Below, piece by piece: positions 1,889 through 18,255 of a DNA stretch of 32,000 nt; position 1 is the stretch's first letter, and the number at the start of each line of letters is the position of its first letter. The translations under genes and the position numbers were made by a program. The notes under the pieces are model-generated. The model was not told where the DNA came from. It was given only the letters and a program-made list of their open reading frames with translations, and did not search any database. The stretch comes from Cupriavidus necator (GTDB lineage Bacteria; Pseudomonadota; Gammaproteobacteria; Burkholderiales; Burkholderiaceae): NCBI RefSeq assembly GCF_016127575.1, contig NZ_CP066018.1, positions 660,001-692,000 of the forward strand, given 5' to 3'.

Positions 1889-2023
1889 GGCTTGTCTCCT
1901 CAGGTCTTGTTATGCAGGCGAAGTCAGGGCTTCGCTACCTGAAGCGTAGGTGCCGGGGCGGCATCACTACATCAGGATTGGCTGAATTCGACCTAAGGAT
2001 TTTCCTAGACGCACCGCAGCAGA

Positions 2024-2674
2024 CTAGGCCGCGTCCCCGGCTTCGGCGAGCAGGCCGTGGCGGATGGCGTAGTGCACCAGCCCGGCCGTCGAAGCGATAT
2101 CCATCTTGCCGAGAATGTTGGCCTTGTGGGTGCTTACCGTCTTGGCGCTGAGCGACAGCGCCGCGGCGACCTCGTTGATGCCCAGCCCCTCGGCCAGCAT
2201 CTGGAACACCTGCAGTTCACGCGCCGTCAGGCGTGCATGCGGCAACATGGCATCGGGCTGCCGGGCCTGGCTGAGGAGCTTGTCGGCAATCGCCGGCGAG
2301 ACCGCGGTACCGCCGCGCGCCACCTTGCGGATGGCACCGAGCAGCTGGTCGGACTCCACATTCTTGGTCAGGTAGCCAGCCGCGCCCGCGCGGATAGCCT
2401 GCACCGCATATTGCGACTCGCGGTACATGCTCAGCACCAGGATCGGTAGCGCCGGATAGCCGGCCCGTATCTGCTGGATCAGCAGGATGCCGCTGCGCCC
2501 CGGCATCGACATGTCCAGCAACAGCACGTCCGGCGTCTGCGCGCGCAGCAGCGCCAACACTTCGCAGCCGTCGGCGGCTTCGGCCACCACCTGCATGTCG
2601 GGCACGGTGGAGAAGATCTTCTTGAGCCCGTCGCGGATGATGGTGTGGTCGTCGGCAAGCATCAGGCGGATCAT
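2024..2674 (-). CDS. NarL/FixJ (LuxR-type) response regulator
   Basis: MIRLMLADDHTIIRDGL receiver start, DMSMPGRSG phospho-acceptor region and a C-terminal LTARELQVFQMLAEGLGINEVAAALSLSAKTVSTHKANILGKM LuxR HTH. The start overlaps the kinase stop (ATGA at 2671-2674). The longer track ORF to 3061 is an artefactual extension. Confidence 0.9.
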   Translation of the reverse strand: MIRLMLADDHTIIRDGLKKIFSTVPDMQVVAEAADGCEVLALLRAQTPDVLLLDMSMPGRSGILLIQQIRAGYPALPILVLSMYRESQYAVQAIRAGAAGYLTKNVESDQLLGAIRKVARGGTAVSPAIADKLLSQARQPDAMLPHARLTARELQVFQMLAEGLGINEVAAALSLSAKTVSTHKANILGKMDIASTAGLVHYAIRHGLLAEAGDAA

Positions 2675-3738
2675 CTTGCGCCTCCGTTGCCGGCAGTGCC
2701 GGCATTGGGGATCTGCGCCTCGACCCGGGTGCCGCCGCCCTTCTCGCTGGTTACCGCCAGCTTGCCGCCCAGCATCAGCGCACGCTCGCGCATCCCCAGC
2801 AAACCCAGGCTGCGGCGATGCCCGGCCCTGGACGCATCGATGCCGCGGCCGTTGTCGGCAACCACCAGCCGCAAGGTCCCGCCGGCCGCGCTCAGCTCCA
2901 CCCGCACGCGATCGGCGCGGCCATGGCGGCAGGCATTGGTCAGCGCTTCCTGCGCGATGCGAAAGACCGCGGTGCTGAGTTCGGCGCTGAGCTCGCCGAC
3001 GGGCTGCAGCGCCAGCTCGCAGGCGATGCCGCCGCGCTCGGAAAAAGACTCGGCCAGCCACTCGATCGCCGCGGTCAGCCCCAGCTCATCCAGCAGCGGC
3101 GGGCGCAGGTCTGCCGCGATGCGCTGCACCGCGTCCACCGTCGAATCCGCGATCTGCTTGAGCATCTGCAAATGCTTGCGGCACGCGTCGCCGGCATCGG
3201 GGCCCTGCTGCGCTTCGATAAAGCTGAGTCCCAGGCGCAATGCCGTCAGGGACTGCCCAAGCTCATCGTGCAGCTCGCGTGAGATCCGGGTGCGCTCCGC
3301 CTCGCGCACGGACTGCAGGTAGGCGGACAGCTCACGCAGCTGCGCGCGCGATTCCAGCAGCTCCTGCTCGGAGCGCTTGCGGTCGGTAATGTCGCGCGAG
3401 ATGCCAACCGTGCCGACGACCGCGCCGTCCTGGCCCCGAATCGGCATCTTGATGGTATCGAACCAGCGCAGGCTGCCGTCCTGGCCGTGACGGCATTCCT
3501 CATAACGCCGGCGGATGCCGCTGGCCACCACCGCCTTGTCGGTGTCCAGGTAGACCTGTCCCCATTCCTCCGACCACACCTTGTCCGGCGTGCTGCCCAG
3601 AATCTCGGCCTCGGACCGCCCGCATGCGGCCATGAAGGCGTCATTGACCAGGACGTAGCGGGAGCCGACGTCCTTCAGCCAGGCCTGGTCGGGTATGTTG
3701 TTCAGTATGGCCCGCTGCAGGTCGACATACGTATCCAT
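2671..3738 (-). CDS. Cytoplasmic PAS-domain sensor histidine kinase (HisKA_3/HATPase_c)
   Basis: PAS block (NNIPDQAWLKD...VGISRDITDRKRSEQEL), H-box RISRELHDELGQSLTAL and G-box ADNGRGI...GLLGMRERA. No TM helices. I chose the ATG at 3738 (MDTYVDL) because AAGGAG lies 5 nt upstream; the track ORF begins at 3795. Confidence 0.85.
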   Translation of the reverse strand: MDTYVDLQRAILNNIPDQAWLKDVGSRYVLVNDAFMAACGRSEAEILGSTPDKVWSEEWGQVYLDTDKAVVASGIRRRYEECRHGQDGSLRWFDTIKMPIRGQDGAVVGTVGISRDITDRKRSEQELLESRAQLRELSAYLQSVREAERTRISRELHDELGQSLTALRLGLSFIEAQQGPDAGDACRKHLQMLKQIADSTVDAVQRIAADLRPPLLDELGLTAAIEWLAESFSERGGIACELALQPVGELSAELSTAVFRIAQEALTNACRHGRADRVRVELSAAGGTLRLVVADNGRGIDASRAGHRRSLGLLGMRERALMLGGKLAVTSEKGGGTRVEAQIPNAGTAGNGGAR

Positions 3739-4150
3739 GACTTCTCCTTGCCGGGCCCTTGCCTTGTCGGCGGGCGCCCGATTCATGACAGACAAGTATC
3801 AGTTCATGCCTTGCACTCTTCAGACGGCATGGCCTGCCTGCAGCCCCTCGGACTATAGCCAGTAACCGGCGGCAATGCGCCTGTCGTTTTCCTCAATGGC
3901 GGGACGAAAGCGAACGGAAGTCCGGATGACAGAGCCTTGCGGCATGATGCCGATCACGGGGCTGTTGGGCGGTTCTTGCGTTCCAGTGGCGTGAGACTTC
4001 TGACCCAGATTTAAGGCAAGCCTTATTTCTGCCGGAATGCGCCACACCTATCGTAGTAGCGTAACTTCAACCGGCATGCCGGAAAGCCGGACGGCCGGCC
4101 CACAACCTGGCCGTTTGTGCATGCGCGCATGCCATCACGGCGAACCTGCC

Positions 4151-5164
4151 ATGAACCGAAAGCAATTAATCAGCGCCCTGCGCCACTGGCTGGTGGTACT
4201 TGCATCCCTTGCGGTCCCGCATTTCGCTCAAGCGGCCTGCAGCGCCACGCCGGCGATGCCATATCTGCAAACACTGAGCGACATGGCTGTCGCCGCCAAC
4301 CTTGCCGTCGGCAGCACCATTCCCGGCACGGTGCACTACTACACATTCAGCGGCACTTGCACCTACGTGCCACCAGCGGTTGTGGCCGGCGCTCCTATCA
4401 TCTCCTGCTACTATGGCAACGGCACCGAGGTCATGCCGGGCGTGTACTCCACCGGCGTCCCCGGCATCGGCATCCGGCTGCGCAATGCAGCGGGCCAGCC
4501 CATGACCAATGCAGCCGGTGTGAAATGCGATACTCGCAGCGCGAACCTTGGTTACCTGGACGCCAGCCTGAACTATTCCGTGTCGGTATCAGTGGAATTT
4601 GTGAAGACCGGGCCGATCATCTCAGGCAGTCTCGATCCTGCCCAGACCCGATTCGGCTTCGGCGTCTATGACGGCAGCACGGCGGGGGGACTGGGTGGCA
4701 CCAGCAACTACATCGGCCTCAGCGGCAACGTGACACCGCGGGAAATTTCCTGCAACAGTACCTACCCCCCGGTGGTGAACCTGCCAGCAATCAGCGCACT
4801 CACGCTCGCAAACCAGGGGGTGGGTGGCAACACGCCTTTCGCCATCCAGCTGACCTGCAGTGGCGGAGCCATTGTCGGCATGACGCTGGACGCGGCCGCG
4901 GGTACGCCGGTGGCCTCGGCCGGAGCCGGCATCCTCGGCATCACCAATGCCGGGACGGGCGGCATGGCCAGCGGCGCAGGCGTGCAGATCGTCAATGCGA
5001 GCGGCACCGAGCCTGTACCCCTGCAGGTGCGCAATGCGATGGGCAACATCACGGCCAACGTCCCCGCCACATACCGCTTCGGCGCGCGCTACATCGGCCT
5101 TGGCGGCACGCCCTCCCCGGGGACGGTATCAAGCGCGATGATCTTTACCATGGATTATCAGTAG
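4151..5164 (+). CDS. Orphan type-1-fimbria-like two-domain adhesin/pilin protein
   Basis: Sec signal peptide MNRKQLISALRHWLVVLASLAVPHFAQA. The C-terminal pilin-like domain has a Cys pair (ISCNS...QLTCSG) and the typical terminal strand ...MIFTMDYQ. The N-terminal ~180 aa form an extra domain. GC3 is visibly lower than in neighbouring genes. Confidence 0.6.
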   Translation: MNRKQLISALRHWLVVLASLAVPHFAQAACSATPAMPYLQTLSDMAVAANLAVGSTIPGTVHYYTFSGTCTYVPPAVVAGAPIISCYYGNGTEVMPGVYSTGVPGIGIRLRNAAGQPMTNAAGVKCDTRSANLGYLDASLNYSVSVSVEFVKTGPIISGSLDPAQTRFGFGVYDGSTAGGLGGTSNYIGLSGNVTPREISCNSTYPPVVNLPAISALTLANQGVGGNTPFAIQLTCSGGAIVGMTLDAAAGTPVASAGAGILGITNAGTGGMASGAGVQIVNASGTEPVPLQVRNAMGNITANVPATYRFGARYIGLGGTPSPGTVSSAMIFTMDYQ

Positions 5165-5228
5165 CGCGCACGGAAGCCGCACGGCGAAGGACTACAATAG
5201 GCGGTTGCAGTCCTTGAAGGCTTTCGCC

Positions 5229-5630
5229 ATGTCTGACCATCCCCGCTTCACCATCAACCGTTCCATGGTCGCGCTGGTCCCGGAACAGCCGTTCCTGGAC
5301 TGGATCCAGGCGGTCGATCCCCAGCCGGTGGCCGGCCTCACGCTAGAGCAGGTGCGCGAGGACCAGAGCGTGTTTCTGCTGCCGGAAGAGCTGGCCGATA
5401 CGCACGACAACGCCTTGCGCTGGGTCGAGAAGCGCTGGCAGGAATTCTTTGAATTCATGCTGGGCGAGTGGTTCGATGACTCGATGTGGCCCGAGGAACT
5501 GTCGCTGCAGATGTTCCGCGAGTGGTTCAGCGTGCGCTACCACTCGATGGTGTTCGACATGGCGCCTGACGTGCCGGTCATGCACGATGACTGGGACGAC
5601 GAAGACGACGCATCCGAGATGCTGCACTAG
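5229..5630 (+). CDS. Hypothetical small cytoplasmic protein with an acidic C-terminal tail
   Basis: 133-aa ORF with genome-typical high GC3. GAAGG lies about 9 nt upstream of the ATG at 5229. Trp/Phe/Glu-rich, ending DDWDDEDDASEMLH. I recognise no family. Confidence 0.55.
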   Translation: MSDHPRFTINRSMVALVPEQPFLDWIQAVDPQPVAGLTLEQVREDQSVFLLPEELADTHDNALRWVEKRWQEFFEFMLGEWFDDSMWPEELSLQMFREWFSVRYHSMVFDMAPDVPVMHDDWDDEDDASEMLH

Positions 5631-5645
5631 GAACAAGGATCAGGA

Positions 5646-5676
5646 ACCCGGCCGGCAGCGCGCCGGCCCGGGTTTC
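5646..5676. terminator. GC-rich hairpin between convergent genes, a candidate bidirectional terminator
   Basis: ACCCGGCCGGC (5646-5656), loop AGCGC, then GCCGGCCCGGGT (5662-5673). This is an 11-12 bp stem with one bulge, followed by TTT on the + strand and TTCC on the - strand. The U-tracts are weak. Confidence 0.45.
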
Positions 5677-5694
5677 GGCGTCGCCAGCGACACC

Positions 5695-6189
5695 TCAGAG
5701 GAAGCGGTCGAGGATCTTGCGGCTGTGCTTGTCCAGCGCCGTCAGGTCGCGGATCAGGTAGTGGATGCCGTGCGTGTCCGATATCAGCAGCGTGCTGCCG
5801 GCCAGGCGCCGGATTGCCTCTTCGCCGCGCAGCACCAGCTCGGTCTTGCCGCGATCGGTCTGCACCGTCCACACGCTGGGCGTGGCGTAGGTCGACACGC
5901 TGACGATACGCTGGATCTCCGGCATGAACTCGCGCGAGGCGAGTTCCGCTTCGATCATGTCGCGCTCTGCCTGCGGCACATCCTCCAGCCGCGGAATCCA
6001 CACCACCTCATGCCCGTCGGTGCTCATCAGGCCGATGCCGCCCTGCGGCGCGGAAATCGGGAAGGCGCGCACCGGCACCACGCCTTCGTGGACGGTGCCG
6101 TCTTCGGCGATCAGGACCAGGCGGCCAAAACGATTGCGATCTAGCGTAAACATGGGTGTCGGCGTGGTGGCGGGAACGTCATTGGGCAT
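5695..6189 (-). CDS. DUF1854 family protein (cyanophycin-locus associated)
   Basis: The core FTLDRNRFGRLVLIAEDGTVHEGVVPVRAFPIS...LLISDTHGIHYLIRDLTALDKHSRKILDRFL matches my memory of DUF1854. GGAGG lies 6 nt upstream of the ATG at 6189, which overlaps the ABC gene stop by 11 nt. An alternative ATG lies at 6153. Confidence 0.75.
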   Translation of the reverse strand: MPNDVPATTPTPMFTLDRNRFGRLVLIAEDGTVHEGVVPVRAFPISAPQGGIGLMSTDGHEVVWIPRLEDVPQAERDMIEAELASREFMPEIQRIVSVSTYATPSVWTVQTDRGKTELVLRGEEAIRRLAGSTLLISDTHGIHYLIRDLTALDKHSRKILDRFL

Positions 6190-8470
6190 TGGCGGCCTCC
6201 GGCGTTTCGATCGCTTCGTCTTCGCCGTCCTCAGTGTCGACATTGCGCGCCTGCGCCTGGTACAGCTTGTAGTATGCGCCTTCGCGCAACAGCAGCTCAT
6301 CATGGCTGCCGACTTCGACGATCTGGCCGCGGTCCATCACCACCAGCCGGTCGGCCTTGCGCAGTGTCGACAGGCGGTGCGCGATGGCGATGGTGGTGCG
6401 GCCCTGCACCAGGTTGTCGAGCGCCTTCTGGATTTCCTTCTCGGTGGCGGTGTCGACCGACGAGGTGGCCTCGTCCATGATCAGGATGCGCGGGTTGATC
6501 AGCAGCGCGCGCGCGATCGAGATGCGCTGGCGCTCGCCGCCTGACAGCGCCTGGCCACGCTCACCGACCAGCGAGTCATAGCCGTGCGGCAGGCGCAGGA
6601 TGAACTCGTGCGCATGCGCGGCGCGCGCGGCGGCGATGATCTCCTCGCGCGTGGCGTCGGGCTTGCCATAGGCAATATTGTCGGCAATCGTGCCGAAGAA
6701 CAGGAACGGCTCCTGCAGCACCAGGCCGATATGGCGGCGGTACTCCGACACCGGCAGCGAGCGGATATCGACGCCGTCGACGCGGATCGCGCCCTCGGAA
6801 ACATCGTAGAAACGGCAGATCAGGTTGACCAGCGTGCTCTTGCCCGAGCCGCTGTGCCCCACCAGGCCAATCATCTCGCCCGGCTCGATCGACAGGTTCA
6901 GCCCGCGGATCACCGCGCGGTTGCCGTAGCGGAAGCCCAGGTCGCTCATGTCGATGGCGCCTTCGACCTTGTCCAGCTTCGCCGGGCGCACCGGCTCCGG
7001 CACGCTCGAGACATGGTCGAGGATGTCGAAGATGCGCTTGGCGCCGGCAGCGGCCTTCTGCGTCACCGAGACGATCCGGCTCATCGAATCCAGGCGGGTA
7101 TAGAAGCGGCTGATATAGGTCAGGAACGCCACCAGCACACCCACCGTGATGGCGCTGTGCGACACCTGCCAGATGCCGAACACCCACACGATCAGCAGGC
7201 CGATCTCGGTCAGCAGGGTGACCGTCGGCGTGAACAGCGACCATACCGCGTTGACGCGGTCGTTGATCGCCAGGTTGTGCTTGTTGGCCTCGCGGAAGCG
7301 CGACACCTCACGCTTTTCCTGGGCAAAGGCCTTGACCACGCGGATGCCGGGGATGGTATCGGCCAGCACATTGGTGATCTCGGACCAGATCCGGTCGATC
7401 TTCTCGAAGCCGTGGCGCAGGCGGTCGCGCACCAGGTGGATCATCCAGGCGATGAACGGCAGCGGCACCAGCGTGACCAATGCCAGCCACGGGTTGATCG
7501 ACACCAGGATCACCGCCGTCATGAGGATCATCAGCACGTCGGTGGCAAAGTCCAGCAGGTGCAGCGACAGGAAGACGCAGATGCGGTCGCTTTCCGAGCC
7601 GATGCGCGCCATCAGATCGCCGGTGCGCTTGCCGCCGAAGTATTCCAGCGACAGCTTTAGCAGATGTTCGTACGTAGTAGTGCGCAGATCGGCGCCGATA
7701 CGCTCCGATACGCGCGCGAGCAGGTAAGTGCGCGCCCACCCCAGCGACCAGGCCACCAGCGCCGCCCCCAGCAATCCCGCGAGGTACAGACGCACCAGCC
7801 CGTAGTCGATCGGCACCCCGTTCTGGAACGGGATCAGCACCTTGTCCATCAGCGGCATGGTCAGGTACGGCGGCACCAGCGTGGCCGCGGTGGACAGCAG
7901 CGTCAGCAGGAAGCCCGCCAGCAGCTGCCACTGGTACGGCCGGGCAAAGCGCCACAGGCGCAGCAGCGCCCAGGTCGACGGCGGGGTTTCCAGCTCCCGG
8001 CTGCATTGGGGGCACTGTTCCTCGTCCGGCGGCAGCGGCGCCTTGCAGGTCGGGCACAGCACTTCGCCCGCCCCGCCCGCCGGGCGCGCGCCGGCGGCAT
8101 CGCGCTGGAATTCGAACTGGTCGGCCAGCCGCAGCGCGGCCGGATTGTAACCAAGCGTGTATCGCCAGCTCGCCAGCCGGCCTTCTGGACCGCTCAGTTC
8201 CAGCGCGCCCACGCCCGCGTGGTCGGTGTGCGACAGGCGCAGGGAGGTCCCGATGTTCCATTCCCGCACATTTTTTTCACCGGGAGCCCGGGCAACGATG
8301 CGCTGGTCGGTCACAACCAGCCACCCTTGGGTAAAATGCAGCTTCGCGTCGAGGTCCAGAGCCAGTCCGGCCAGGACGGTCTCGCCGGGTCGGAGCCACG
8401 ATCCGGATTCGGTACGCCAGGGCTCGTCGGCAGCAGGGGCGGTAGGGACAGGCAGGGAGGACTGGGTCAT
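6179..8470 (-). CDS. Fused ABC exporter (TMD-NBD half-transporter) with an N-terminal PH-like plus zinc-ribbon extension
   Basis: 763 aa from the ATG at 8470. Residues 1-130 are soluble and carry a WLVVTDQRIVARAP PH/GRAM-like strand. CPTC-x13-CPQC spans aa 139-156. A six-helix ABC_membrane domain follows, then Walker A GHSGSGKST, signature LSGGERQR and Walker B ILIMDEATS. The upstream part of the track ORF (to 8599) has non-coding codon usage. Confidence 0.85.
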   Translation of the reverse strand: MTQSSLPVPTAPAADEPWRTESGSWLRPGETVLAGLALDLDAKLHFTQGWLVVTDQRIVARAPGEKNVREWNIGTSLRLSHTDHAGVGALELSGPEGRLASWRYTLGYNPAALRLADQFEFQRDAAGARPAGGAGEVLCPTCKAPLPPDEEQCPQCSRELETPPSTWALLRLWRFARPYQWQLLAGFLLTLLSTAATLVPPYLTMPLMDKVLIPFQNGVPIDYGLVRLYLAGLLGAALVAWSLGWARTYLLARVSERIGADLRTTTYEHLLKLSLEYFGGKRTGDLMARIGSESDRICVFLSLHLLDFATDVLMILMTAVILVSINPWLALVTLVPLPFIAWMIHLVRDRLRHGFEKIDRIWSEITNVLADTIPGIRVVKAFAQEKREVSRFREANKHNLAINDRVNAVWSLFTPTVTLLTEIGLLIVWVFGIWQVSHSAITVGVLVAFLTYISRFYTRLDSMSRIVSVTQKAAAGAKRIFDILDHVSSVPEPVRPAKLDKVEGAIDMSDLGFRYGNRAVIRGLNLSIEPGEMIGLVGHSGSGKSTLVNLICRFYDVSEGAIRVDGVDIRSLPVSEYRRHIGLVLQEPFLFFGTIADNIAYGKPDATREEIIAAARAAHAHEFILRLPHGYDSLVGERGQALSGGERQRISIARALLINPRILIMDEATSSVDTATEKEIQKALDNLVQGRTTIAIAHRLSTLRKADRLVVMDRGQIVEVGSHDELLLREGAYYKLYQAQARNVDTEDGEDEAIETPEAANAQ

Positions 8471-8710
8471 GGATGGCGCGGCGTGCGTCCAGGGGGTACG
8501 GACATAACTTGAAACAAATTTAGGCCGGGCACGCTCTGGCGGCCCGCGAATTCGCCCGCAGTATACATAACGACGAACGCGCGAGTACTCCTGATGCACT
8601 GCACAATCACTTTTACACGAAGAAAGTCAACCCGCTCTGTGCTGTAACGTTACTGAAAGGTTAGGCTTCCATTTCTCGGGCGGTTCCGCCCACTGCCTCA
8701 AGCTAATTCA
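8471..8710. promoter_or_regulatory. Divergent control region between the ABC/DUF1854 operon and the cphA genes
   Basis: A 240-bp AT-richer spacer containing four perfect palindromes: GCGAATTCGC (8546-8555), GTATAC (8561-8566), GAGTACTC (8583-8590) and GTAACGTTAC (8644-8653). A GGGCGG-tt-CCGCCC hairpin lies at 8678-8691. I could not assign promoter hexamers confidently. Confidence 0.4.
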
Positions 8711-11344
8711 ATGAAAAAGAAGGACATTGAGATTTTCGATGTCATGTCGCTGCGCGGCCCGAATATGTGGACATATCGGCCCGTACTGGAGGCATGGGTC
8801 GATATCGGGGAACTGGAGGACTTTCCCTCCAACACGATTCCGGGGTTCCACGAGCGCCTGTCGGCCTGGCTGCCGTCGCTGATCGAGCATCGCTGCAGTA
8901 TCGGCGAGCGCGGCGGCTTCCTGCAGCGCGTGAAGGACGGCACCTGGCCCGGCCATATCCTGGAACACGTGACGCTTGAGCTGCAGAACCTGGCGGGCAT
9001 GCCCGGCGGCTTCGGCAAGGCGCGCGAGACCCCGGTGCGCGGCGTCTACAAGGTGATCGTGCGCGCCTGGCACGAGCAAGTCACCCGCGTCGCCCTGTTC
9101 ACCGCCCGCGACCTGGTCATGGCCGCGATCGAGGACCGTCCCTTCGACGTCCCCGCCGCCGTGGACAACCTGCGCCGCCTGGTGGACGAGCATTGCCTGG
9201 GCCCCAGCACCGCCTGCATCGTCGATGCCGCGGACGACCGCGACATCCCGGCGATCCGCCTGTCGGACGGCAACCTGGTGCAGCTGGGATACGGCGCGCG
9301 CCAGCGCCGCATCTGGACCGCCGAGACCGACCGCACCAGCGCCATCGGCGAAAGCATTTCGCGCGACAAGGACCTGACCAAGAGCCTGCTGGAGTCCTGC
9401 GGCGTGCCAGTCCCCGAGGGCCGCATGGTCGATTCCCCGGCAGACGCCTGGGACGCCGCCGAGGACATCGGCGTGCCGGTGGTGGTCAAGCCCTATGACG
9501 GCAACCACGGCCGCGGCGTGTTCACCAACCTGATGACCCGCGAGGAAGTCGAGACCGCCTACGGCGTGGCCATCGACGAAGGCAACGGCGTCATCGTCGA
9601 ACGCTTCATCCCCGGCAACGAGCACCGCCTGCTGGTGGTGGGCGGCCGCCTGGTGGCCGCCGCCATGGGCGAGACCGCGAGCGTGGTCGGCGACGGCAAG
9701 TCCACCATCGACGAGCTGATCGAGCTGCAGATCAATTCCGATCCGCGCCGCGGCACCACCGAGGATCATCCGCTGAACCGTGTGCGGCTGGACTCGGCCG
9801 CGCGCCTGGAACTGAAGCGCCAGGGCATGAACGCCAGCTCGGTACCGCCCGAAGGCCGCACCGTGCTGATCCAGCGCAACGGCAATGTCGCCTTCGACGT
9901 CACCGACCGTGTGCACCCGAGCGTCGCTGCGCATGCGGCGCTCGCCGCGCGCGTGGTCGGGCTGGACATCGCCGGCGTGGACCTGGTGGCCGAGGACATC
10001 TCGCGCCCGCTGGCCGAGCAGCGCGGCGCCATCGTCGAGGTCAACGCCGGCCCCGGCCTGCTGATGCATATCAAGCCGGCCGAAGGCACGCCGCGCCCGG
10101 TCGGCCGCGCCATCGTCAACCACCTGTTCCCTGAGTCCGATGACGACCAGGGCCGCATCCCGGTGGTGGGCGTGACCGGCACCAACGGCAAGACCGTGGT
10201 CGCGCGCCTGGTGGCGCGCCTGCTGCAGCTGTCGGGCAAGCATACCGGCCTGGCCTGCAGCGACGGGCTGTTCCTGGACCGCCGCCAGGTGGAAAGCGGC
10301 GACCGCGCCAACTGGGAATCGGGCCATCGCATCCTGATGAACCGCGCGGTCGAGGCCGCCGTGTTCGAGAACGACAGCGGCAGCATCCTCTCCGAAGGCC
10401 TGGCCTACGACCGCTGCCAGGTCGGCGTGGTCACCAATTTCGACCAGCCCGACCACCTCGGCGACTACTACGTCGAGGACGAGGACCGCATGTACAACGT
10501 GCTGCGCACGCAGGTCGACGTGGTGCTGGAGACCGGCGCGGCCGTGCTCAACGCGCGCGACGAACGCCTGGTGGAGATGGCCGGGCTGTGCGACGGCGAC
10601 GTGATCTTCTTCGGCCTGACGCCGGAACTGCCTGCTATCGTGTCGCACCGCGCCGCCGGCAAGCGCGCGGTGTACCTGCGCGAAGGCAAGATCGTGCTGG
10701 CCACCGGCAGCAGCGAAACCGCGCTGGTGGACGTGGCCGCGGTGCCGCTGACCTATGCCGGACGCGTCGCGTTCCAGGTCGAGAACGTGCTGGCGGCCGT
10801 GGCCGCGGGCTGGGCGCTGGGCATTTCCAACGACCTGATCCGCGCCGGCGTGGTGACCTTCGATGTCGGCCAGGTCGACGTGCCGGGCCGCTTCACGCTG
10901 TTCGAGCGCAACGGCGCCACCGTGGTGGTCGACGACGCCCACAACGCGCCCGCGCTGGAAGCCCTGGCGACCGCGCTGGAGCGCTTCCCGGCCGAGCGCC
11001 GCATGGTGGTCTACGGCGCCGGCATGCAGCGCCGCGACGAAGACCTGGTGCGCCAGGGCATGGCGCTGGGGCAGCATTTCGACCGCGTCTTCCTGTGCGA
11101 GGACCGCAGCGTCAAGCGCGCCCTGCCCGATGCCGAGGCGCGCGCGCTGCTCAAGCAGGGCCTGTACGAAGGCCGGCGCGTGACCAAGATCATCGACGAA
11201 GGCACGCGCGCCAGCGCCATTGAAACCGCGCTCAGCCAGCTGGTGCCGGGCGACCTGCTGGTACTGCAGTGCGACGAGGCCGCCACCGGCGCCACCGTCG
11301 ACCTGGTGCACCACTGGATGGGCCAGCCTGCGCGCCGCGCCTGA
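8711..11344 (+). CDS. cphA: Cyanophycin synthetase paralog with a divergent catalytic core (canonical N-domain block, degenerate G/M motifs)
   Basis: 877 aa. N-domain LRGPNMW...PGFHERLSAWLPSLIEHRCSIGERGGFLQRVKDGTWPGHILEHVTLELQNLAGMPGGFGKARET. ATP-grasp VVVKPYDGNHGRGV and IVEVNAGPGL. Mur-like P-loop GVTGTNGKT. It reads RNGNVAFDVTD where canonical enzymes have ANLSTGGxAxDxTD, and also ENDSGSILS, DDAHNAP and GAGMQRRD. Confidence 0.9.
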   Translation: MKKKDIEIFDVMSLRGPNMWTYRPVLEAWVDIGELEDFPSNTIPGFHERLSAWLPSLIEHRCSIGERGGFLQRVKDGTWPGHILEHVTLELQNLAGMPGGFGKARETPVRGVYKVIVRAWHEQVTRVALFTARDLVMAAIEDRPFDVPAAVDNLRRLVDEHCLGPSTACIVDAADDRDIPAIRLSDGNLVQLGYGARQRRIWTAETDRTSAIGESISRDKDLTKSLLESCGVPVPEGRMVDSPADAWDAAEDIGVPVVVKPYDGNHGRGVFTNLMTREEVETAYGVAIDEGNGVIVERFIPGNEHRLLVVGGRLVAAAMGETASVVGDGKSTIDELIELQINSDPRRGTTEDHPLNRVRLDSAARLELKRQGMNASSVPPEGRTVLIQRNGNVAFDVTDRVHPSVAAHAALAARVVGLDIAGVDLVAEDISRPLAEQRGAIVEVNAGPGLLMHIKPAEGTPRPVGRAIVNHLFPESDDDQGRIPVVGVTGTNGKTVVARLVARLLQLSGKHTGLACSDGLFLDRRQVESGDRANWESGHRILMNRAVEAAVFENDSGSILSEGLAYDRCQVGVVTNFDQPDHLGDYYVEDEDRMYNVLRTQVDVVLETGAAVLNARDERLVEMAGLCDGDVIFFGLTPELPAIVSHRAAGKRAVYLREGKIVLATGSSETALVDVAAVPLTYAGRVAFQVENVLAAVAAGWALGISNDLIRAGVVTFDVGQVDVPGRFTLFERNGATVVVDDAHNAPALEALATALERFPAERRMVVYGAGMQRRDEDLVRQGMALGQHFDRVFLCEDRSVKRALPDAEARALLKQGLYEGRRVTKIIDEGTRASAIETALSQLVPGDLLVLQCDEAATGATVDLVHHWMGQPARRA

Positions 11345-11390
11345 CGCGGCCCCAAGCTCAACCGCGCATAGAAGACACGGAAACCGTTCT

Positions 11391-13961
11391 ATGGAAGTCT
11401 CACGTATCCGGGCCCTGCGGGGCCCGAACCTGTGGTGCCGCCACACCGCCATCGAGGCGATCGTGGCCTGCCAGGATGCCACCAACATGCTGTCGGCGCT
11501 GCCCGGTTTTGAAGACCGGCTGCGCGCCCGTTTCCCCGAAATCGGGCCGCTGCGCCCGGACGAGGAGTCGGGTGAGCTGTCGCTGGCCCACGTGCTGGAA
11601 GTGACCGCGCTGCGCCTGCAGGCCGCCGCCGGCTGCCCGGTCACCTTCAGCCGCACCGCGCAGACGGTCGAGCCCGGCACCTACCAGGTGATCGTGCAAT
11701 ACAGCGAGGAAGAAGTCGGCCGGCTTGCGTTCGAGCTGGCCGAGGCCCTGTGCCGCGCCGCGCGCAACGACACCCCGTTCGACCTGGCAGACGCGCTGCA
11801 CCGCCTGCGCGAGCTGGACGAGGACGTGCGCCTGGGGCCCAGCACCGGCTCCATCGTCTACGCCGCCGTGGCGCGCGGCATCCCCTACCGGCGCCTGACG
11901 CAGGGCTCGATGGTGCAGTTCGGCTGGGGCAGCAAGCAGCGCCGTATCCAGGCCGCAGAGACCGACCGCACCAGCGCCGTGGCCGAATCGATCGCGCAGG
12001 ACAAGGACCTGACCAAGACCCTGCTGCACGCCGCCGGCGTGCCGGTGCCGCTGGGCCGCTCGGTGCGCAGCGCCGAAGAGGCCTGGGCCGCAGCGCAGGA
12101 AATCGACGCCCCGGTGGTGGTCAAGCCGCGCGACGGCAACCAGGGCAAGGGTGTGGCGGTGCGCATCCGCACCCGCGAGGAAGTGATGACGGCCTACGAG
12201 GTCGCCTCGGACATCAGTTCGGACGTAATCGTCGAGCGCTATATCCCGGGCCATGACTTCCGCCTGCTGGTGGTCGGCAAGCAGCTGGTGGCGGCCGCGC
12301 GCCGCGACCCGCCGCAGGTCATCGGCGACGGCGTGCATACCGTGCGCCAGCTGGTCGAGGAAGTGAACCGCGACCCGCGCCGCGGTGAAGGCCATGCGAC
12401 CTCGTTGACCAAGATCCGCTTTGACGACATCGCGCTGGCCACGCTGGCCAAGCAGAACCTGACCGCCGATTCCGTGCCGGCCAACGGCACGCGCGTGGTG
12501 TTGCGCAACAACGCCAACCTGTCCACCGGCGGCAGCGCCACCGACGTCACCGACGACGTCCACCCGGACATCGCCGCGCGTGCCGTGGCGGCGGCGCAGA
12601 TGGTGGGCCTGGACATCGCCGGCGTCGACGCCGTGTGCGAGACCATGCTCAAGCCGTTCGAGGAACAGGCCGGCGGCATCGTCGAGGTCAACGCCGCGCC
12701 GGGCCTGCGCATGCACCTGCAGCCGTCGTACGGCAAGGGCCGCGCGGTCGGTGAAGCCATTGTCTCGACCATGTTCTCCGATGGCGACGATGGCCGCATC
12801 CCGGTGGTGGCCGTGTCCGGCACCAACGGCAAGACCACCACGGTCCGGCTGATCACCCACATCATGGCCACCAGCGGCCTGCGCATGGGCATGACCGGCA
12901 CCGACGGCGTGTATATCCAAGGCGAGCGCATCGACACCGGCGACTGCAGCGGCCCGCGCAGCGCGCGCAACGTGCTGCTGCACCCGGACGTGGACGCCGC
13001 CGTGTTTGAAACCGCGCGCGGCGGCCTGCTGCGCGAAGGCCTGGCCTTCGACCGCTGCGACGTGGCGGTGGTGACCAACGTGGGCGAAGGCGACCACCTG
13101 GGCCTGTCCTACATCAACTCGGTGGAAGACCTGGCGGTGCTCAAGAGCGTGATCGTGCAGAACGTCGCGCCGCACGGCATGGCGGTCCTGAACGCAGCCG
13201 ACCCGATGGTGGTGCGCATGGCCGACGCCTGCCCCGGCAGCGTCACCTTCTTCGCCCACGATCCCAACCAGCCGGCCATGGCCACGCACCGCGCGCAGGG
13301 CAAGCGCGTGGTGTTCGTGGACGGCGCCGACATCGTGGCGTCCGAAGGCGATACTGAAGTGCGCATCGCGGTAGCCGAGGTCCCGCTGACGCGCAACGGC
13401 ACCATCGGCTTCCAGGTCGATAACGCGATGTCGTCGATCGCCGCCGCGTGGGCGCTGGGCATCGACTGGCCGACCATCCGCCGCGGCCTGGCCACCTTCG
13501 TCAACGACGCGCAGACCGCCCCGGGACGCTTCAACGTGTTCGACTACCGCGGCGCCACGCTGATCGCCGACTACGGCCACAACCCGGATGCCATCCTGGC
13601 GCTGTGCAACGCTGTCGAGACCATCCCGGCCAAGCGGCGCATGGTGGTGATCAGCGGCGCGGGCGACCGCCGCGACGACGACATCCGCCGCCAGACCCAG
13701 ATCCTGGGCGGCGTGTTCGATGAAGTCATCCTGTACCAGGACCAGTGCCAGCGCGGCCGCGCCGACGGCGAGGTGCTGGCGCTGCTGCGCGAAGGCCTGC
13801 AGGGCGCGCAACGCGCCGGCCAGGTCGAGGAGATCCGTGGCGAGTTCCTCGCCATCGATACCGCGCTGTCGCACCTGCAGCCGGGCGACCTGTGCCTGGT
13901 CCTGGTGGACCAGGTGGAAGAGGCGCTGGGGCATATCGCCAGCCGCATCGCGCAGGGCTGA
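11391..13961 (+). CDS. cphA: Cyanophycin synthetase (canonical G and M catalytic motifs, divergent N-domain block)
   Basis: 856 aa from the ATG at 11391. It has VVVKPRDGNQGKGV, NNANLSTGGSATDVTDDVHP, IVEVNAAPGLRMH, VSGTNGKTTT, AVFETARGGLLREGL, TNVGEGDHLGL, DYGHNPDA, GAGDRRDDD and QRGRADGE, all as in cyanobacterial CphA1 as I remember it. Confidence 0.9.
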   Translation: MEVSRIRALRGPNLWCRHTAIEAIVACQDATNMLSALPGFEDRLRARFPEIGPLRPDEESGELSLAHVLEVTALRLQAAAGCPVTFSRTAQTVEPGTYQVIVQYSEEEVGRLAFELAEALCRAARNDTPFDLADALHRLRELDEDVRLGPSTGSIVYAAVARGIPYRRLTQGSMVQFGWGSKQRRIQAAETDRTSAVAESIAQDKDLTKTLLHAAGVPVPLGRSVRSAEEAWAAAQEIDAPVVVKPRDGNQGKGVAVRIRTREEVMTAYEVASDISSDVIVERYIPGHDFRLLVVGKQLVAAARRDPPQVIGDGVHTVRQLVEEVNRDPRRGEGHATSLTKIRFDDIALATLAKQNLTADSVPANGTRVVLRNNANLSTGGSATDVTDDVHPDIAARAVAAAQMVGLDIAGVDAVCETMLKPFEEQAGGIVEVNAAPGLRMHLQPSYGKGRAVGEAIVSTMFSDGDDGRIPVVAVSGTNGKTTTVRLITHIMATSGLRMGMTGTDGVYIQGERIDTGDCSGPRSARNVLLHPDVDAAVFETARGGLLREGLAFDRCDVAVVTNVGEGDHLGLSYINSVEDLAVLKSVIVQNVAPHGMAVLNAADPMVVRMADACPGSVTFFAHDPNQPAMATHRAQGKRVVFVDGADIVASEGDTEVRIAVAEVPLTRNGTIGFQVDNAMSSIAAAWALGIDWPTIRRGLATFVNDAQTAPGRFNVFDYRGATLIADYGHNPDAILALCNAVETIPAKRRMVVISGAGDRRDDDIRRQTQILGGVFDEVILYQDQCQRGRADGEVLALLREGLQGAQRAGQVEEIRGEFLAIDTALSHLQPGDLCLVLVDQVEEALGHIASRIAQG

Positions 13962-13974
13962 CCGGCCCGGCGAT

Positions 13975-14012
13975 AAAAAAAGGCCAGCTCCGCAGAGCTG
14001 GCCTTTTTCTTT
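13975..14012. terminator. Bidirectional rho-independent terminator
   Basis: An A7 tract, then a perfect 9-bp stem GGCCAGCTC (13982-13990) / GAGCTGGCC (13995-14003) with a 4-nt loop CGCA, then TTTTTCTTT. It lies between the convergent cphA and permease genes. Confidence 0.8.
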
Positions 14013-14021
14013 GCGCGCCGA

Positions 14022-14681
14022 TCAGTGGCGTCCGGGCAGCGACAAGCGCCGCTCCAGCATATGCTGCACCCCCGACAGCCCCGTGCTCAGCACCCAGTAG
14101 ATCGCCGCCACCGCCAGGTACAGAGGCAGCGGCTGGTAGGTGGCCGCGATCACCTCCTGCGCCGTGCGCAGCAGCTCGGTCACGGTGATGACCGATACCA
14201 GCGAGGTGTCCTTGATCAGGCTGATCAGGCTGTTGGACAGGCTTGGCACCGCCAGCCGCAGCGCCTGCGGGCCGATCACGTAGCGCAGTGCCTGCGCCGG
14301 CGTCAGGCCCAGGCTGTAGGCTGCCAGCCATTGGCCGCGCGACACGCCCAGGATGGCCCCGCGCATGCTCTCGGACAGGTAGGCGCCGACGTTCAGGCTC
14401 AGCGTCAGCACGCCCGCGGGCGTGGGCTCCAGCGCGATGCCGATGCCCGGCAGCCCGTAGTAGACGACAAAGATCTGCACCAGCAGCGGCGTGCCGCGCA
14501 TGATGCTGACGTAGGTGCGCGCCGCCGCCTTGAGCACACGGCTATGGCTGATGCCCATCAGCGCCACCACCGTGCCCAGCATCAGCCCGAACACCATCGA
14601 CCACAACGCGAACTTGATGGTCAGCAGCGTGCCCTGCAGCAGCACTGGCAGGGAATCGGTGACAAGCTGGAGAGCGGACAT
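14022..14681 (-). CDS. Polar amino-acid ABC transporter permease (YecS/TcyL-like)
   Basis: 219 aa. It aligns along its length with E. coli YecS as I recall it (LQLVxDSLPxLLxG..., IxRGTPLxxQxFxxYYGLP, GxTPxQxxRxxxxPQAxRxAxPxLSNSxISLxKDTSL EAA loop). Confidence 0.85.
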   Translation of the reverse strand: MSALQLVTDSLPVLLQGTLLTIKFALWSMVFGLMLGTVVALMGISHSRVLKAAARTYVSIMRGTPLLVQIFVVYYGLPGIGIALEPTPAGVLTLSLNVGAYLSESMRGAILGVSRGQWLAAYSLGLTPAQALRYVIGPQALRLAVPSLSNSLISLIKDTSLVSVITVTELLRTAQEVIAATYQPLPLYLAVAAIYWVLSTGLSGVQHMLERRLSLPGRH

Positions 14682-14790
14682 GGGCGTGGCGGCGGCAGAA
14701 GAATGAAAAAGAAAACGGCGCGGCAGCCATGCAGACCGCGGCGCCGCGACATGATACCGCCCGGCTTGCTGGCCGGCTTACCTGACTGGC

Positions 14791-15612
14791 TTACTTGATT
14801 GGCTTACCGGCGGGCCTGGTCACGTCGGTGCCGAACCACTTCACCGAGAGCTTGCCAAGCGTGCCGTCCTTGCCCAGGTCATCCAGCGCGTGGTTGATGG
14901 CCTGCGCGAACTTGGGGTTGTCCTTGCGGAACGGGATGGCCACCTGCGTGGTGGCACCCGCCACGATCGCGCCCGGCCGCAGCGGCAGGTTGGCGGTCTT
15001 GACCAGGTAGGCGACCATCAGCCGGTCGTTCAGCGCGGCGTCGACGCGCTGTGCCGCGAGGTCGCGCAGGTACTCAGGCGCGCCGGGATAGGTCTTGACG
15101 TCGATGCCCGGCACCGACTTGGCCAGGTCGTTGAAATTGCTGCCCAGGCTGACGCCGAGCTTGTGGCCCTTCAGGTCTTCCAGCGACTTGAACTGGCGCT
15201 TGTCGTCCTTGCGCTGGATCAGCTGCGCATCCGAGTAGACGTAGGGCGTGGAGAAGTCCAGCACTTGCTGGCGCTGAGGCGTGACGTTGACCTGGTTGAC
15301 GATCACGTCGAACTTGCCCGCCTGCAGGCCGGCAATGATGCCGCTCCACTCGGTGGTGACGAACTCCGGCTTCACCCCCAGCTTGCCCGCCACCGCACGC
15401 GCCACGTCCACGTCAAACCCTTCCAGCTCGTTCTTCGCGCCGCGGAAGCCGAACGGCGGATACGTGCCCTCCAGGCCGATCTTTAGCACGCCGGCCTGCT
15501 TGACGGTATCGAGCAGGTCGGCGGCCTGCGCCGCGGTGGACGCCAGCCCGGCGCCGGCAAGCAGCGAGGCAGCCAGCAGGGATTTGAGCCAGCCAGTACG
15601 AATCGATCGCAT
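14791..15612 (-). CDS. Amino-acid ABC transporter periplasmic binding protein (FliY/TcyJ cystine-binding-like)
   Basis: 273 aa with a signal peptide ending AAQA. LKIGLEGTYPPFGF, GFDVDVA, VIVNQVNVTPQRQQVLDFSTPY and GTLGKLSVKWFG resemble E. coli FliY. GGAGA lies 4 nt upstream of the ATG. Confidence 0.85.
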   Translation of the reverse strand: MRSIRTGWLKSLLAASLLAGAGLASTAAQAADLLDTVKQAGVLKIGLEGTYPPFGFRGAKNELEGFDVDVARAVAGKLGVKPEFVTTEWSGIIAGLQAGKFDVIVNQVNVTPQRQQVLDFSTPYVYSDAQLIQRKDDKRQFKSLEDLKGHKLGVSLGSNFNDLAKSVPGIDVKTYPGAPEYLRDLAAQRVDAALNDRLMVAYLVKTANLPLRPGAIVAGATTQVAIPFRKDNPKFAQAINHALDDLGKDGTLGKLSVKWFGTDVTRPAGKPIK

Positions 15613-15812
15613 ATGTTCTCCAGTGGATGCGGATAAGCAGTGTGGGGGACAGACAGCGCCGGAGGCCGCTTGTGAGGGCCGCCGGCCAGTTGTGCTGCTA
15701 TGAGCCTATATCGGGCTCAACACTACCGCAAACACTATCGAGCGCTAAATACTGATTCATTATGGCTAAATAACCGCCGGACCTGATACGGCCAGGCCGT
15801 GGCGCCCTGCCC

Positions 15813-16724
15813 TTACTGGTAGGCCTTGTCGTTGGGCGCCGCGAACAGCGCCTTCATGTCGGCCGAGAGCGGGTAGTTCATGTTGATGCCGCGCGGCGGG
15901 ATCGGCGACATGAACCACTTGTTGTACAGCTTCTCGGCACGGCCGCTGGTCTGCAGGTCTGCGATCACGCCGTCGGCCAGCTTCTTGAACGAGGGATCGT
16001 CCTTGCGGAACATGCAGGCGTAGTTCTCGGTCTGCAGCGGCGCGCCGACCACCACCCAGTCGGCCGCGCTCTTGGCCTTGGTGCGCTCGCCGTACAGCAG
16101 CGGCTCGTCCATGACGAAGGCAGCGGCGCGGCCGGTCTCCAGGATCAGGAAGGACTGGCCGTGGTCCTTGGTGCTGATCAGGTTCATGTTCATGGCCTTC
16201 TCGCCGTTCATCTTGACCAGCAGGCGCTCGCCGGTGGTGCCGGCGGTGGTGACCACATTGCGGTCCTTCAGGTCGGTGAACTCCTTCACGCCCGAATCCT
16301 TCCTGGTCAGCATCTTGATGCCGTAGACGAACATGCTGTTGGAGAACGCCACCTGCTTCTGGCGCTCCAGGTTGTTGGTGGTGCTGCCGCATTCGATGTC
16401 GATGGTGCCGTTCTGCACCAGCGGGATGCGGTTCTGCGAGGTGATCGGGGTCAGGCGCATCTGCAGGCCGGGCATCTTCAGTTCGCTCTTCACCTTGTCG
16501 ACAATCTGCAGCAGGATCTCGTGCGAATAGCCCATGACCTCCTTGCCGTCGGTGTATGAGAACGGGATCGACGATTCGCGATAGCCAAGCGAGATCACGC
16601 CGCTGTCCTTGATCTTCTTCAGCGTGTCGCCATCGGCGGCATGGGCGGCGCCGGCGGCCAGCAGCAGCGTGGCGGCCGCAAGCGCGCGGCGGGTGGCGGA
16701 TCGGTGGGGGTGCAGTGATTGCAT
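15813..16724 (-). CDS. Glutamate/aspartate-type ABC transporter periplasmic binding protein (GltI-like)
   Basis: 303 aa from the ATG at 16724, with AAGGAG 6 nt upstream. Signal peptide ...AAGAAHA. It has GVISLGYRESSIPFSY, QNGTIDIECGSTTNNLERQKQVAFS and KWFMSPIPPRGINMN, typical of GltI-family binding proteins. Confidence 0.8.
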   Translation of the reverse strand: MQSLHPHRSATRRALAAATLLLAAGAAHAADGDTLKKIKDSGVISLGYRESSIPFSYTDGKEVMGYSHEILLQIVDKVKSELKMPGLQMRLTPITSQNRIPLVQNGTIDIECGSTTNNLERQKQVAFSNSMFVYGIKMLTRKDSGVKEFTDLKDRNVVTTAGTTGERLLVKMNGEKAMNMNLISTKDHGQSFLILETGRAAAFVMDEPLLYGERTKAKSAADWVVVGAPLQTENYACMFRKDDPSFKKLADGVIADLQTSGRAEKLYNKWFMSPIPPRGINMNYPLSADMKALFAAPNDKAYQ

Positions 16725-16845
16725 GTGGCGCTCCTTGTAGTGGGGCTTGGTCATTGAGGCATGTTTCGTGGACGGCGTCGTGGCTTGCGGACGCACGGGT
16801 ACGGCATGAACCAACACTTGCCTGCGGCGCTAGCGGGACAGGACG

Positions 16846-18135: not shown

Positions 18136-18255
18136 CCCTTGATTGCTTTTTCCCGATCCGGCAAAGCGTAGTGCAGGCGGCGCGGATTGCCCAATGCGAA
18201 TACGTGCCAGAATATGTCATCAGGCTATGGATGCCTGCCCGCTTCCCGGATTGCC

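Follow-up and report, generated by a model that had tools for sequence, protein, structure and literature searches.

A 32,000 bp stretch of chromosome 1 of Cupriavidus necator H16 (contig NZ_CP066018.1, positions 660,001 to 692,000; hereafter the window) contains two neighbouring genes for proteins related to cyanophycin synthetase, 877 and 856 amino acids (aa) in length, which are transcribed divergently from genes encoding an ATP-binding cassette (ABC) transporter and a DUF1854 protein. These four genes are an evolutionarily locked unit, conserved as an arrangement far beyond chance, and are proposed, with what is judged about an even chance of being correct, to act as one functional unit in which a split cyanophycin-type synthetase is coupled to a dedicated inner-membrane exporter and the product is exported. 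The association of the four genes and the idea of export are already known, both from the literature and from the NCBIfam models that exist for the two partners of the synthetases. What is added here are the complementary losses of active sites in the two synthetases, a Q267/[Y/F]308 residue signature, the PH-like domain and four-cysteine (Cys4) ribbon of the transporter, and the occurrence of the system in Planctomycetota and Acidobacteriota.

The proteins were identified as CAJ91921-CAJ91924 by exact-sequence lookup, and the open reading frame (ORF) map, family scans and public gene calls agree on the coordinates and on products of 164, 763, 877 and 856 aa, which bears out the four-gene anatomy given in a preliminary description of the window made from its sequence alone. 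All four proteins exceed the cutoffs of curated families. The genes, and the region from which they diverge, are arranged as follows:

5695-6189, minus strand: DUF1854 gene, 164 aa (CAJ91924; PF08909, 182 bits; NF052234, 237.9 bits)
6179-8470, minus strand: ABC exporter gene, 763 aa (CAJ91923; NF052233, 1452.7 bits; PF00664 followed by PF00005)
8471-8710, no strand: divergent control region, 240 bp between the ABC gene and that for the 877 aa protein
8711-11344, plus strand: gene for the 877 aa synthetase-like partner (CAJ91922; inferred from locus order to be cphA′)
11391-13961, plus strand: gene for the 856 aa polymerase-type synthetase (CAJ91921; inferred from locus order to be cphA)

The ABC and DUF1854 genes overlap by 11 bp, which suggests translational coupling.

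Conservation of the four-gene unit

The only mention of DUF1854 found in the literature is that of Price et al. (bioRxiv 10.1101/072470), in which the DUF1854, ABC, cphA and cphA′ genes of Acidovorax sp. 3H11 and C. basilensis 4G11 were found to be cofit and to matter for motility and several stresses, and in which both export and the missing cyanophycinase were raised in a one-paragraph proposal. The module in the window is identical to that system, and the C. basilensis orthologues are among the loci assembled here (L015 and L021, with DUF1854 proteins 72-75% identical to that of the window). A cluster of two cphA genes and an ABC gene without cphB had also been noted earlier in activated-sludge genomes and in Sideroxydans. 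The preliminary description took the link as one made purely by gene context and presented export as new biology; the former view is superseded by the reported cofitness and motility and stress phenotypes, and the latter idea is prior art, as a proposal.

The extent of this linkage was assessed by scanning genomes for DUF1854 with an alignment of close relatives, retaining one genome per species. At least 571 genomes harboured a relative, and the best 80 loci, each from a different species, were examined; these span the Burkholderiaceae, Oxalobacteraceae, Alcaligenaceae, Comamonadaceae, Rhodocyclaceae, Gallionellaceae and Nitrosomonadaceae. Within this best-scoring set the ABC gene lies immediately upstream of DUF1854 at every locus (80/80), and synthetase genes are present at all 75 loci with enough flanking sequence. 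Two architectures were observed, one divergent, as in the window, and one a co-linear array in the order ABC, DUF1854, 877-type and 856-type, with the 877-type gene always preceding the 856-type. No fifth conserved gene, whether for a peptidase, an adaptor or an outer-membrane protein, was found among the 80 loci, no other family occurring in more than nine of them, and the conserved unit is exactly four genes. Linkage was equally evident when approached from 856-type cphA genes in metagenomes, where 47 of the 47 loci with at least 6.3 kb of upstream sequence carry the 877-type, ABC and DUF1854 genes. Two further loci (L159 and L144) were rejected as exceptions, since an ABC gene begins at the edge of the contig. 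Separately, contig L093 could not be interpreted owing to frameshifted gene calls.

Relatives of the ABC protein with the same zinc-ribbon architecture are found in Planctomycetota and Acidobacteriota, and the layout of cphA divergent from ABC-DUF1854 recurs in genomes of Thermoguttaceae, Pirellulales and Bryobacterales. At another locus (L089) a natural fusion of ABC and DUF1854 lies beside a single cphA; a spermine/spermidine-synthase-family gene (6335-7183 of that locus) is situated directly downstream of this cphA. The existence of two gene orders, of ABC-DUF1854 fusions and of the same layout in Planctomycetota and Acidobacteriota supports a functional link. The preliminary description had held that ABC and DUF1854 are functionally tied to the synthetases and had proposed a test of co-occurrence, the outcome of which is strongly positive beyond close relatives and across three phyla. 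The possibility that the adjacency is simply inherited gene order without functional coupling is effectively refuted by these data: it draws solely on the exceptions described below (L122, L090 and a Pirellula locus), while the linkage survives two gene orders, fusion, fission and transfer across three phyla, and the genes are cofit in mutant screens (Price et al.).

Complementary active sites in the paired synthetases

The two synthetase-like proteins are 46% identical, share an N-G-M architecture of Cyanophycin_syn, ATP-grasp and Mur_ligase_M/C domains, and exceed the cutoffs of both TIGR02068 (895 bits for the 877 aa and 987 bits for the 856 aa protein; cutoff 850) and NF010623 (1286 and 1277 bits, respectively; cutoff 877). 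Both genes are full length, as expected from their preliminary description as two full-length paralogues, but they are not equivalent, as their catalytic residues differ systematically. Residues were mapped on the structures of the Synechocystis (7LG5) and T. elongatus (7WAC) enzymes and tabulated in 73-75 species, with their roles taken from mutagenesis and cryo-EM of CphA1 (PMC9262961, PMC9427784); Synechocystis numbering is used for all site residues. The corresponding features of the window are:

8888-8968, plus strand: intact zinc peptidase site in the N domain of the 877 aa protein (aa 60-86)
9878-9898, plus strand: truncated large loop of the 877 aa protein, with loss of the aspartate site
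10364-10399, plus strand: M-domain motif of the 877 aa protein, in which ETARGGILR has become ENDSGSILS
12132-12152, plus strand: G-domain P-loop DGNQGKG of the 856 aa protein, with Q at aa 251 corresponding to position 267
12510-12539, plus strand: intact large loop ANLSTGG of the 856 aa protein
12819-12839, plus strand: canonical M-domain P-loop of the 856 aa protein
13005-13040, plus strand: M-domain motif ETARGGLLR of the 856 aa protein

The zinc peptidase site of the N domain (H57, C59, F67, R70, H79, E82, H83 and E87) is kept in 74 of 74 877-type proteins and lost from 73 of 73 856-type proteins. In canonical enzymes this domain is a true endo-cyanophycinase, with a low catalytic rate and yielding fragments of around four units rather than dipeptides; the primer-generating Cx19HxxEH zinc site is present in 83% of CphA1 enzymes, making it common rather than strictly defining, and either a CphA1 with inactive G and M domains or an isolated N domain, supplied in trans, makes a primer-dependent CphA1 primer-independent (PMC9262961). 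The 856/877 pair resembles a natural version of the experiment in which the primer-dependent Tatumella CphA1 was combined with such an N domain (Sharon et al. 2022, PMC9262961), although that was an in vitro mixture from two species, whereas this is a fixed, co-transcribed pair in at least 73 species that is known from sequence. Priming of the synthetase, suggested in the preliminary description as one role of the ABC protein, fits the 877 aa partner better, as it is the sole keeper of the primer-generating site.

The lack of this site in the 856 aa protein, a feature shared with the Tatumella enzyme, also lends something to the notion that ABC and DUF1854 work inwards, as an exporter-fold importer supplying cyanophycin fragments or primers to a primer-dependent polymerase, and importers with an exporter fold do exist. 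This is nevertheless very improbable, given that the partner subunit in the same operon already provides a primer-generating site, that the single-cphA systems of Planctomycetota keep their own N-domain site yet have ABC and DUF1854, and that neither a substrate-binding protein nor an outer-membrane receptor is conserved near the module.

The residues of the G domain that bind ATP and the acyl phosphate (K220, K261, H267, R269 and R309) are kept throughout the 877-type (75/75) and, in the 856-type, are kept except for substitutions of H267 by Q in 73 of 73 proteins and of R269 by K in 68 of 73. Position 308 is occupied by H in all 75 877-type proteins and by F, Y or W in 70 of 73 of the 856-type, the residue in the window being F (aa 290). 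The aspartate contacts R323, N394, S396 and R458 are all kept in the 856-type (73/73); those of the 877-type are lost through replacement of R323 by G or S, replacement of R458 by L and deletion of the large-loop STGG, each in 75 of 75 proteins, with the window copy having G at aa 320 and L at aa 451. The full canonical set for aspartate addition (K220, K261, H267, R309, R323, N394/S396 and R458) is present in neither copy in the window.

The arginine site of the M domain (K499, T500, E558, D585/H586, R731 and H748) is entirely kept in 73 of 73 856-type proteins. The 877 aa protein of the window also keeps these residues, and has lost R561 and R566. Across the 877-type the M domain is decaying: K499 is found in 43 and D585 in 35 of 75 proteins, the lid residues are absent from 40, and R561 is retained in none. 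Mean identity to the window copy in the N, G and M domains is 0.75, 0.78 and 0.51 for the 877-type and 0.71, 0.81 and 0.76 for the 856-type, and at distant loci the partner is shortened to its N and G domains (698 aa) or to little beyond the N domain (481 aa, L091), with the zinc site always retained. On these residue patterns the 856 aa protein is predicted to be a polymerase-type subunit, and the 877 aa protein a partner lacking an aspartate site and carrying a decaying Mur-ligase-like domain. The β-proteobacterial pair looks like the result of duplication followed by subfunctionalisation, and no description of a CphA/CphA′ heteromer, or of a division of labour between the two, was found in the literature.

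A locus from Bryobacterales (L175, GCA_016721425.1; 4555-14447) contains three synthetase-like genes. A 925 aa enzyme has all three sites together with Q267 and Y308; a stand-alone 485 aa ATP-grasp protein bears an 877-like G-domain signature, with H267 and H308 kept, R323 replaced by G, the loop deleted and R458 replaced by M; and an 872 aa protein combines intact N and M domains with a dead G domain (K220E, K261R and H267E). Judged by these residues, the locus appears to be another way of dividing the three activities.

The full-length cphA genes found beside ABC and DUF1854 at L089 and in Thermoguttaceae, Pirellulales and Bryobacterales encode proteins in which all three sites are intact and which carry Q267 and Y308. 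By comparison, H267, R269 and H308 are present in all four solved CphA1 enzymes (7LG5, 7WAC, 7LGN and 7LGM). The Q267/[Y/F]308 signature is therefore predicted to mark a transporter-linked clade rather than simple loss of function, and Q267 is probably functional within it, because the single-cphA relatives with all sites also have Q267. In relation to these canonical enzymes, the N-G-M architecture is the same and the 856 aa protein keeps every aspartate-contact and M-domain catalytic residue, as well as the ATP residues other than H267; the differences are that canonical CphA1 are single trifunctional proteins, whereas here two polypeptides share the three sites between them and the polymerase has Q267 and F308, and that outside the β-proteobacteria CphA1 is usually accompanied by a cyanophycinase in the genome (PMC10206079), whereas here the genomic partner is an exporter.

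These substitutions could alternatively mean that the product is exported but is not cyanophycin, being instead a different polyamide or short oligopeptide, for instance one in which the side-chain amino acid is another or the end is capped, and that the ATP-grasp domain of the 877 aa protein adds or activates something other than aspartate. This is regarded as rather unlikely. The replacement of H267, R269 and H308 of the four solved enzymes by Q267, K/R269 and [F/Y]308 is in its favour, as is the G domain of the partner (G′), which is conserved to the same degree as its N domain (0.78 versus 0.75) and has invariant changes of R323 to G/S and R458 to L and a fixed loop deletion, suggestive of changed function rather than decay; a stand-alone protein with the G′ signature, the 485 aa protein of Bryobacterales, adds to this. 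The polymerase, however, keeps the aspartate contacts R323, N394, S396 and R458 together with all catalytic residues of the M domain, and G′ is not essential everywhere, as it is absent from the 481 aa partner at L091 and from the single-cphA loci of Planctomycetota. Arginine-biosynthesis-type genes, moreover, adjoin the Thermoguttaceae module (L174, 11815-14976). These belong to the ornithine carbamoyltransferase, class III aminotransferase and amino-acid kinase families, lie directly 3′ of DUF1854, and fit an arginine-containing product.

Architecture of the ABC transporter and DUF1854 protein

The ABC protein is a half-size exporter composed of a PH-like domain, a Cys4 ribbon, a membrane domain of six transmembrane (TM) helices and a nucleotide-binding domain (NBD), in that order, and the DUF1854 protein has two lobes:

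8090-8383, minus strand: cytoplasmic PH-like N-terminal domain (aa 30-127), with an invariant DHAG at aa 83-86
8003-8056, minus strand: Cys4 motif CPTC-x10-CPQC resembling a zinc ribbon (aa 139-156), located after the PH-like domain and ahead of TM1
6971-7930, minus strand: exporter-type transmembrane domain (aa 181-500), from PF00664 and the hydropathy profile
6236-6958, minus strand: NBD (aa 505-745), with all catalytic motifs intact
5932-6147, minus strand: DUF1854 lobe 1 (aa 15-86)
5701-5919, minus strand: DUF1854 lobe 2 (aa 91-163)

The score of the ABC protein against NF052233, the model for the 'cyanophycin metabolism-associated ABC transporter', compares with a cutoff of 880 bits, and its gene is also adjacent to the synthetase genes. 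PF00664 precedes PF00005, there are six TM helices, and the Walker A and B motifs, Q-loop, signature and H-loop are intact, as in type I (ABCB/MsbA-like) exporters; from residue ~163 onwards the core matches Sav1866, TM287/288, MsbA and ABCB1-type exporters, in agreement with the exporter-type topology initially assigned to it. Two more specific identities were rejected. The protein is not an MsbA lipid A flippase, scoring 462 bits against a cutoff of 602 for TIGR02203 and 370 against 867 for NF008381 and having an extra N-terminal module of 170 aa that MsbA lacks; nor is it an HlyB-type ABC protein of type I secretion, as it scores 423 bits against a cutoff of 726 for TIGR01846, its N-terminal domain is PH-like rather than C39 or C39-like, and no gene for a membrane-fusion or outer-membrane partner is conserved around it in the 80 loci.

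The PH-like domain was modelled by AlphaFold2 (AF2) with a pLDDT above 95 over aa 30-125, as seven strands and a C-terminal helix. Nearly all of its Foldseek matches belong to the PH superfamily (probability ~1.0, TM-score ≤0.66, best E value 5e-4), and the Pfam bPH_3 match is weak (E value 0.04). The four cysteines that follow (C139, C142, C153 and C156) are invariant in 75 ABC sequences, and relatives of the protein have precomputed matches to PF13248 (Zn_ribbon_3). Neither the PH-like domain nor the Cys4 ribbon has a counterpart in any solved ABC transporter.

The Walker A sequence GHSGSGKST, the Q-loop, the signature LSGGERQR, the D-E of Walker B and the H-loop are 100% conserved in 75 species, over which identity to the residue of the window averages 0.84 in the membrane domain and 0.87 in the NBD. 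This near-equal conservation of membrane domain and NBD, combined with invariant ATPase motifs, favours real transport over anchoring, and makes a poor fit with the pure membrane tethering that the preliminary description had listed among its possibilities. It also bears on the alternative of there being no export at all, the polymer being an intracellular store degraded by another enzyme, possibly the zinc peptidase of the 877 aa protein, while ABC and DUF1854 regulate or anchor the synthetase through the PH-like and DUF1854 domains. Cyanophycin is known only as storage material (PMC10206079), the N-domain peptidase strictly retained in the 877-type is an endo-cyanophycinase in canonical enzymes (PMC9262961), and both the PH-like domain and DUF1854 are interaction-type modules in the cytoplasm, all of which would suit such a store. 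It is considered distinctly unlikely, though, because neither a conserved membrane domain nor an invariant transport cycle is needed in an anchor or sensor, because the peptidase is slow and does not yield dipeptides, because a secondary citation of Adames 2013 in PMC11362209 states that no cyanophycin was observed in wild-type H16, and because the mutant phenotypes are of motility and pleiotropic stress rather than related to nitrogen (Price et al.).

The DUF1854 gene directly follows that of the ABC protein, and the scores of its product compare with cutoffs of 26.8 bits for PF08909 and 150 bits for NF052234. The AF2 model (pLDDT 91.6) is of a soluble, cytoplasmic protein, each of the two lobes consisting of six strands and a helix. 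No significant fold relative was found in the PDB by Foldseek (best E value 3e-3, TM-score ≤0.27, with weak tandem-PH and polo-box-like matches), nor was a relative found by a profile search of PDB sequences. Kinship with the PH-like domain of the ABC protein was rejected, as BLASTP returned nothing and hhalign a probability of 0.3%. DUF1854 is fused to the C-terminus of the ABC protein in several taxa (P0221, P0230, P0458, P0459, P0463, P0490 and P0542), and as this places it at the end of the NBD, the fusions suggest that the protein lies beside the ATPase domain, at the cytoplasmic face of the transporter.

The Pfam DUF1854 family is broader than the cyanophycin-linked subfamily. In Pirellula sp. 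(L087 and L088, 9253-10534), a member ~34% identical to that of the window is paired with a PAPS-reductase-family gene, the 3′ end of which it overlaps by 8 bp, and neither an ABC transporter nor cphA lies within 10 kb.

Proposed destination of the product and surroundings of the module

Family scans for Peptidase_S51, IaaA, IadA and M14-type peptidases found no match in any plausible ORF of the window, in accordance with the preliminary description, which saw no cyanophycinase or isoaspartyl dipeptidase in the 32 kb. Elsewhere in the H16 genome, Adames et al. reportedly place one candidate cyanophycinase-like gene on chromosome 2. A complete cyanophycin storage cluster, comprising cphA with cphB/E and iaaA, iadA or cphZ, was present neither within the window nor among the conserved neighbours of related loci. 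An amidohydrolase encoded at 620-1888 was considered as a hidden isoaspartyl dipeptidase (IadA) and rejected, its best matches being to cytosine-deaminase models and all of these lying below cutoffs. This absence has a wider parallel, in that cyanophycinase was detected in only 2.8% of 903 cphA1-bearing β-proteobacterial genomes, a result termed 'unanticipated' (PMC10206079). The module, being present in the genomes of at least 571 species and in three phyla, is the obvious candidate to account both for the lack of a known export route and for the near-absence of cyanophycinase from cphA-bearing β-proteobacteria.

Of the options discussed above, export appears the best supported. Under the proposed mechanism, the 856 aa subunit would act in the cytoplasm, polymerising aspartate and arginine (or a near variant), and the 877 aa subunit would supply in trans the endo-peptidase that makes primers, trims chains to size or does both, while probably holding the chain end. 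The PH-like domain and DUF1854 would then recognise the product as cargo or dock the synthetase, and the ABC dimer would carry the product through the inner membrane, delivering it to the periplasm or envelope. Physical association of the 856 aa with the 877 aa protein, and of DUF1854 with the ABC protein, would be expected. Such a mechanism would explain the missing cyanophycinase, the lack of intracellular cyanophycin or granules in wild-type H16 and the motility and stress phenotypes.

A more specific proposal, advanced only tentatively and regarded as doubtful, is that the product of the transporter-linked Q267/[Y/F]308 clade, which spans β-proteobacteria, Planctomycetota and Acidobacteriota, is a polymer or oligomer that goes to the periplasm or envelope and is not stored, with the 877 aa protein of the β-proteobacteria as a non-polymerising processing subunit. 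Its zinc endopeptidase, and an ATP-grasp domain that would still bind ATP and the chain end but not aspartate, would cut or end-mark chains, which the PH-like domain and DUF1854 would recognise for export.

Several points weigh against the coupling of a split synthetase to an exporter. ABC proteins with an exporter fold sometimes import, as do IrtAB, YbtPQ and Rv1819c. Cyanophycin specialists state that no export process is known, and an exported product has never been detected in the literature. No outer-membrane or periplasmic partner gene is conserved among the 80 loci, so that any export would end at the periplasm or envelope. The polymerase has Q at position 267, where the H267A mutation inactivates cyanobacterial enzymes (PMC9262961, PMC9427784), and the product may thus not be cyanophycin; according to secondary accounts, canonical cyanophycin is not a product of the H16 enzymes, which possibly make a different light-scattering polymer. 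There are also exceptions to the linkage. Counting one real exception (L122), the total from the 856-type genes in metagenomes becomes 47 of 48 loci; there, the 877-type and 856-type pair (892-6131) is preceded by genes for a rhodanese-domain protein and a HAMP/PAS sensor instead of ABC-DUF1854, and the transporter may lie elsewhere in that genome or have been lost. At another locus (L090) an ABC-DUF1854 fusion occurs without cphA within 8 kb, and the Pirellula DUF1854 gene has its PAPS-reductase-family partner with neither ABC nor cphA nearby.

Parallels to the proposed export can be drawn from other systems. ChvA/NdvA, an MsbA-like half-transporter that exports cyclic β-1,2-glucan made in the cytoplasm, has the same exporter fold and half-size organisation, and offers the nearest functional precedent for a type I exporter dedicated to a cytoplasmic polymer. 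The ABC protein of the window is not a member of that group, scoring 403 and 310 bits against glucan-exporter models with cutoffs of 733 and 585, and ChvA, which carries a neutral glucan, lacks the PH-like domain, the Cys4 ribbon and a DUF1854 partner. Cytoplasmic cargo selection is a function of the C-terminal carbohydrate-binding domain of Wzt in O-antigen export and of the N-terminal C39-like domain of HlyB and PCAT transporters. The positions of these appended domains match those of DUF1854, which is C-terminal to the NBD in some taxa, and of the PH-like domain, although the likeness is an analogy only: the folds differ, the N-terminal domain here being PH-like rather than C39-like, Wzm/Wzt has another transporter fold, and there are no conserved membrane-fusion or outer-membrane partners here. 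In PgsBCA/CapBCA, an ATP-dependent, Mur-ligase-related amide ligase makes poly-γ-glutamate, which ends up outside the cytoplasm. The likeness is that of a non-ribosomal amino-acid polymer produced by a Mur-ligase-related ligase, whereas there is no homology between membrane components, no ABC transporter in that system and a different polymer chemistry.

If correct, the proposed mechanism would represent the first cyanophycin export pathway and a new, non-storage role for a polymer now regarded as a nitrogen store confined to the cell interior, changing the view of cyanophycin biology and offering a possible route to secreted polymer production. The module sits in C. necator H16, a genetically tractable industrial organism, in which the residue-level predictions (the identities of the polymerising and peptidase subunits and the role of Q267) are directly testable.

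The control region between the divergent operons contains a perfect 10 bp palindrome, GTAACGTTAC, at 8644-8653, which occurs nowhere else in the window (0.01 chance matches expected). In an alignment of 23 intergenic regions, blocks including this palindrome and a TTGAC box are conserved across Cupriavidus and Ralstonia, making it a candidate operator for a regulator. A generic scan of the control region for promoters and terminators found nothing above chance.

Beyond the module, a partial set of amino-acid uptake and catabolism genes (14022-19236) is convergent with the gene for the 856 aa protein, and comprises a cystine-type permease, two solute-binding proteins, a D-amino-acid dehydrogenase and a divergent LysR regulator, with no adjoining ABC ATPase gene. 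One of the solute-binding proteins scores 402 bits with a glutamate/aspartate-binding model, above its cutoff of 375, and the set is not conserved beside the module in other genera. On the other side (2024-5164), the module is adjoined by a PAS/HisKA_3 sensor kinase with a response regulator of the LuxR type, and by a fimbrial-subunit gene whose receptor-binding, MrkD-like match is weak. The latter gene is apparently an orphan, the window containing no usher or chaperone gene. The G+C content of the synthetase genes (9001-14000) is ~70-71%, as against ~63-67% in the ABC and DUF1854 genes and both flanks.

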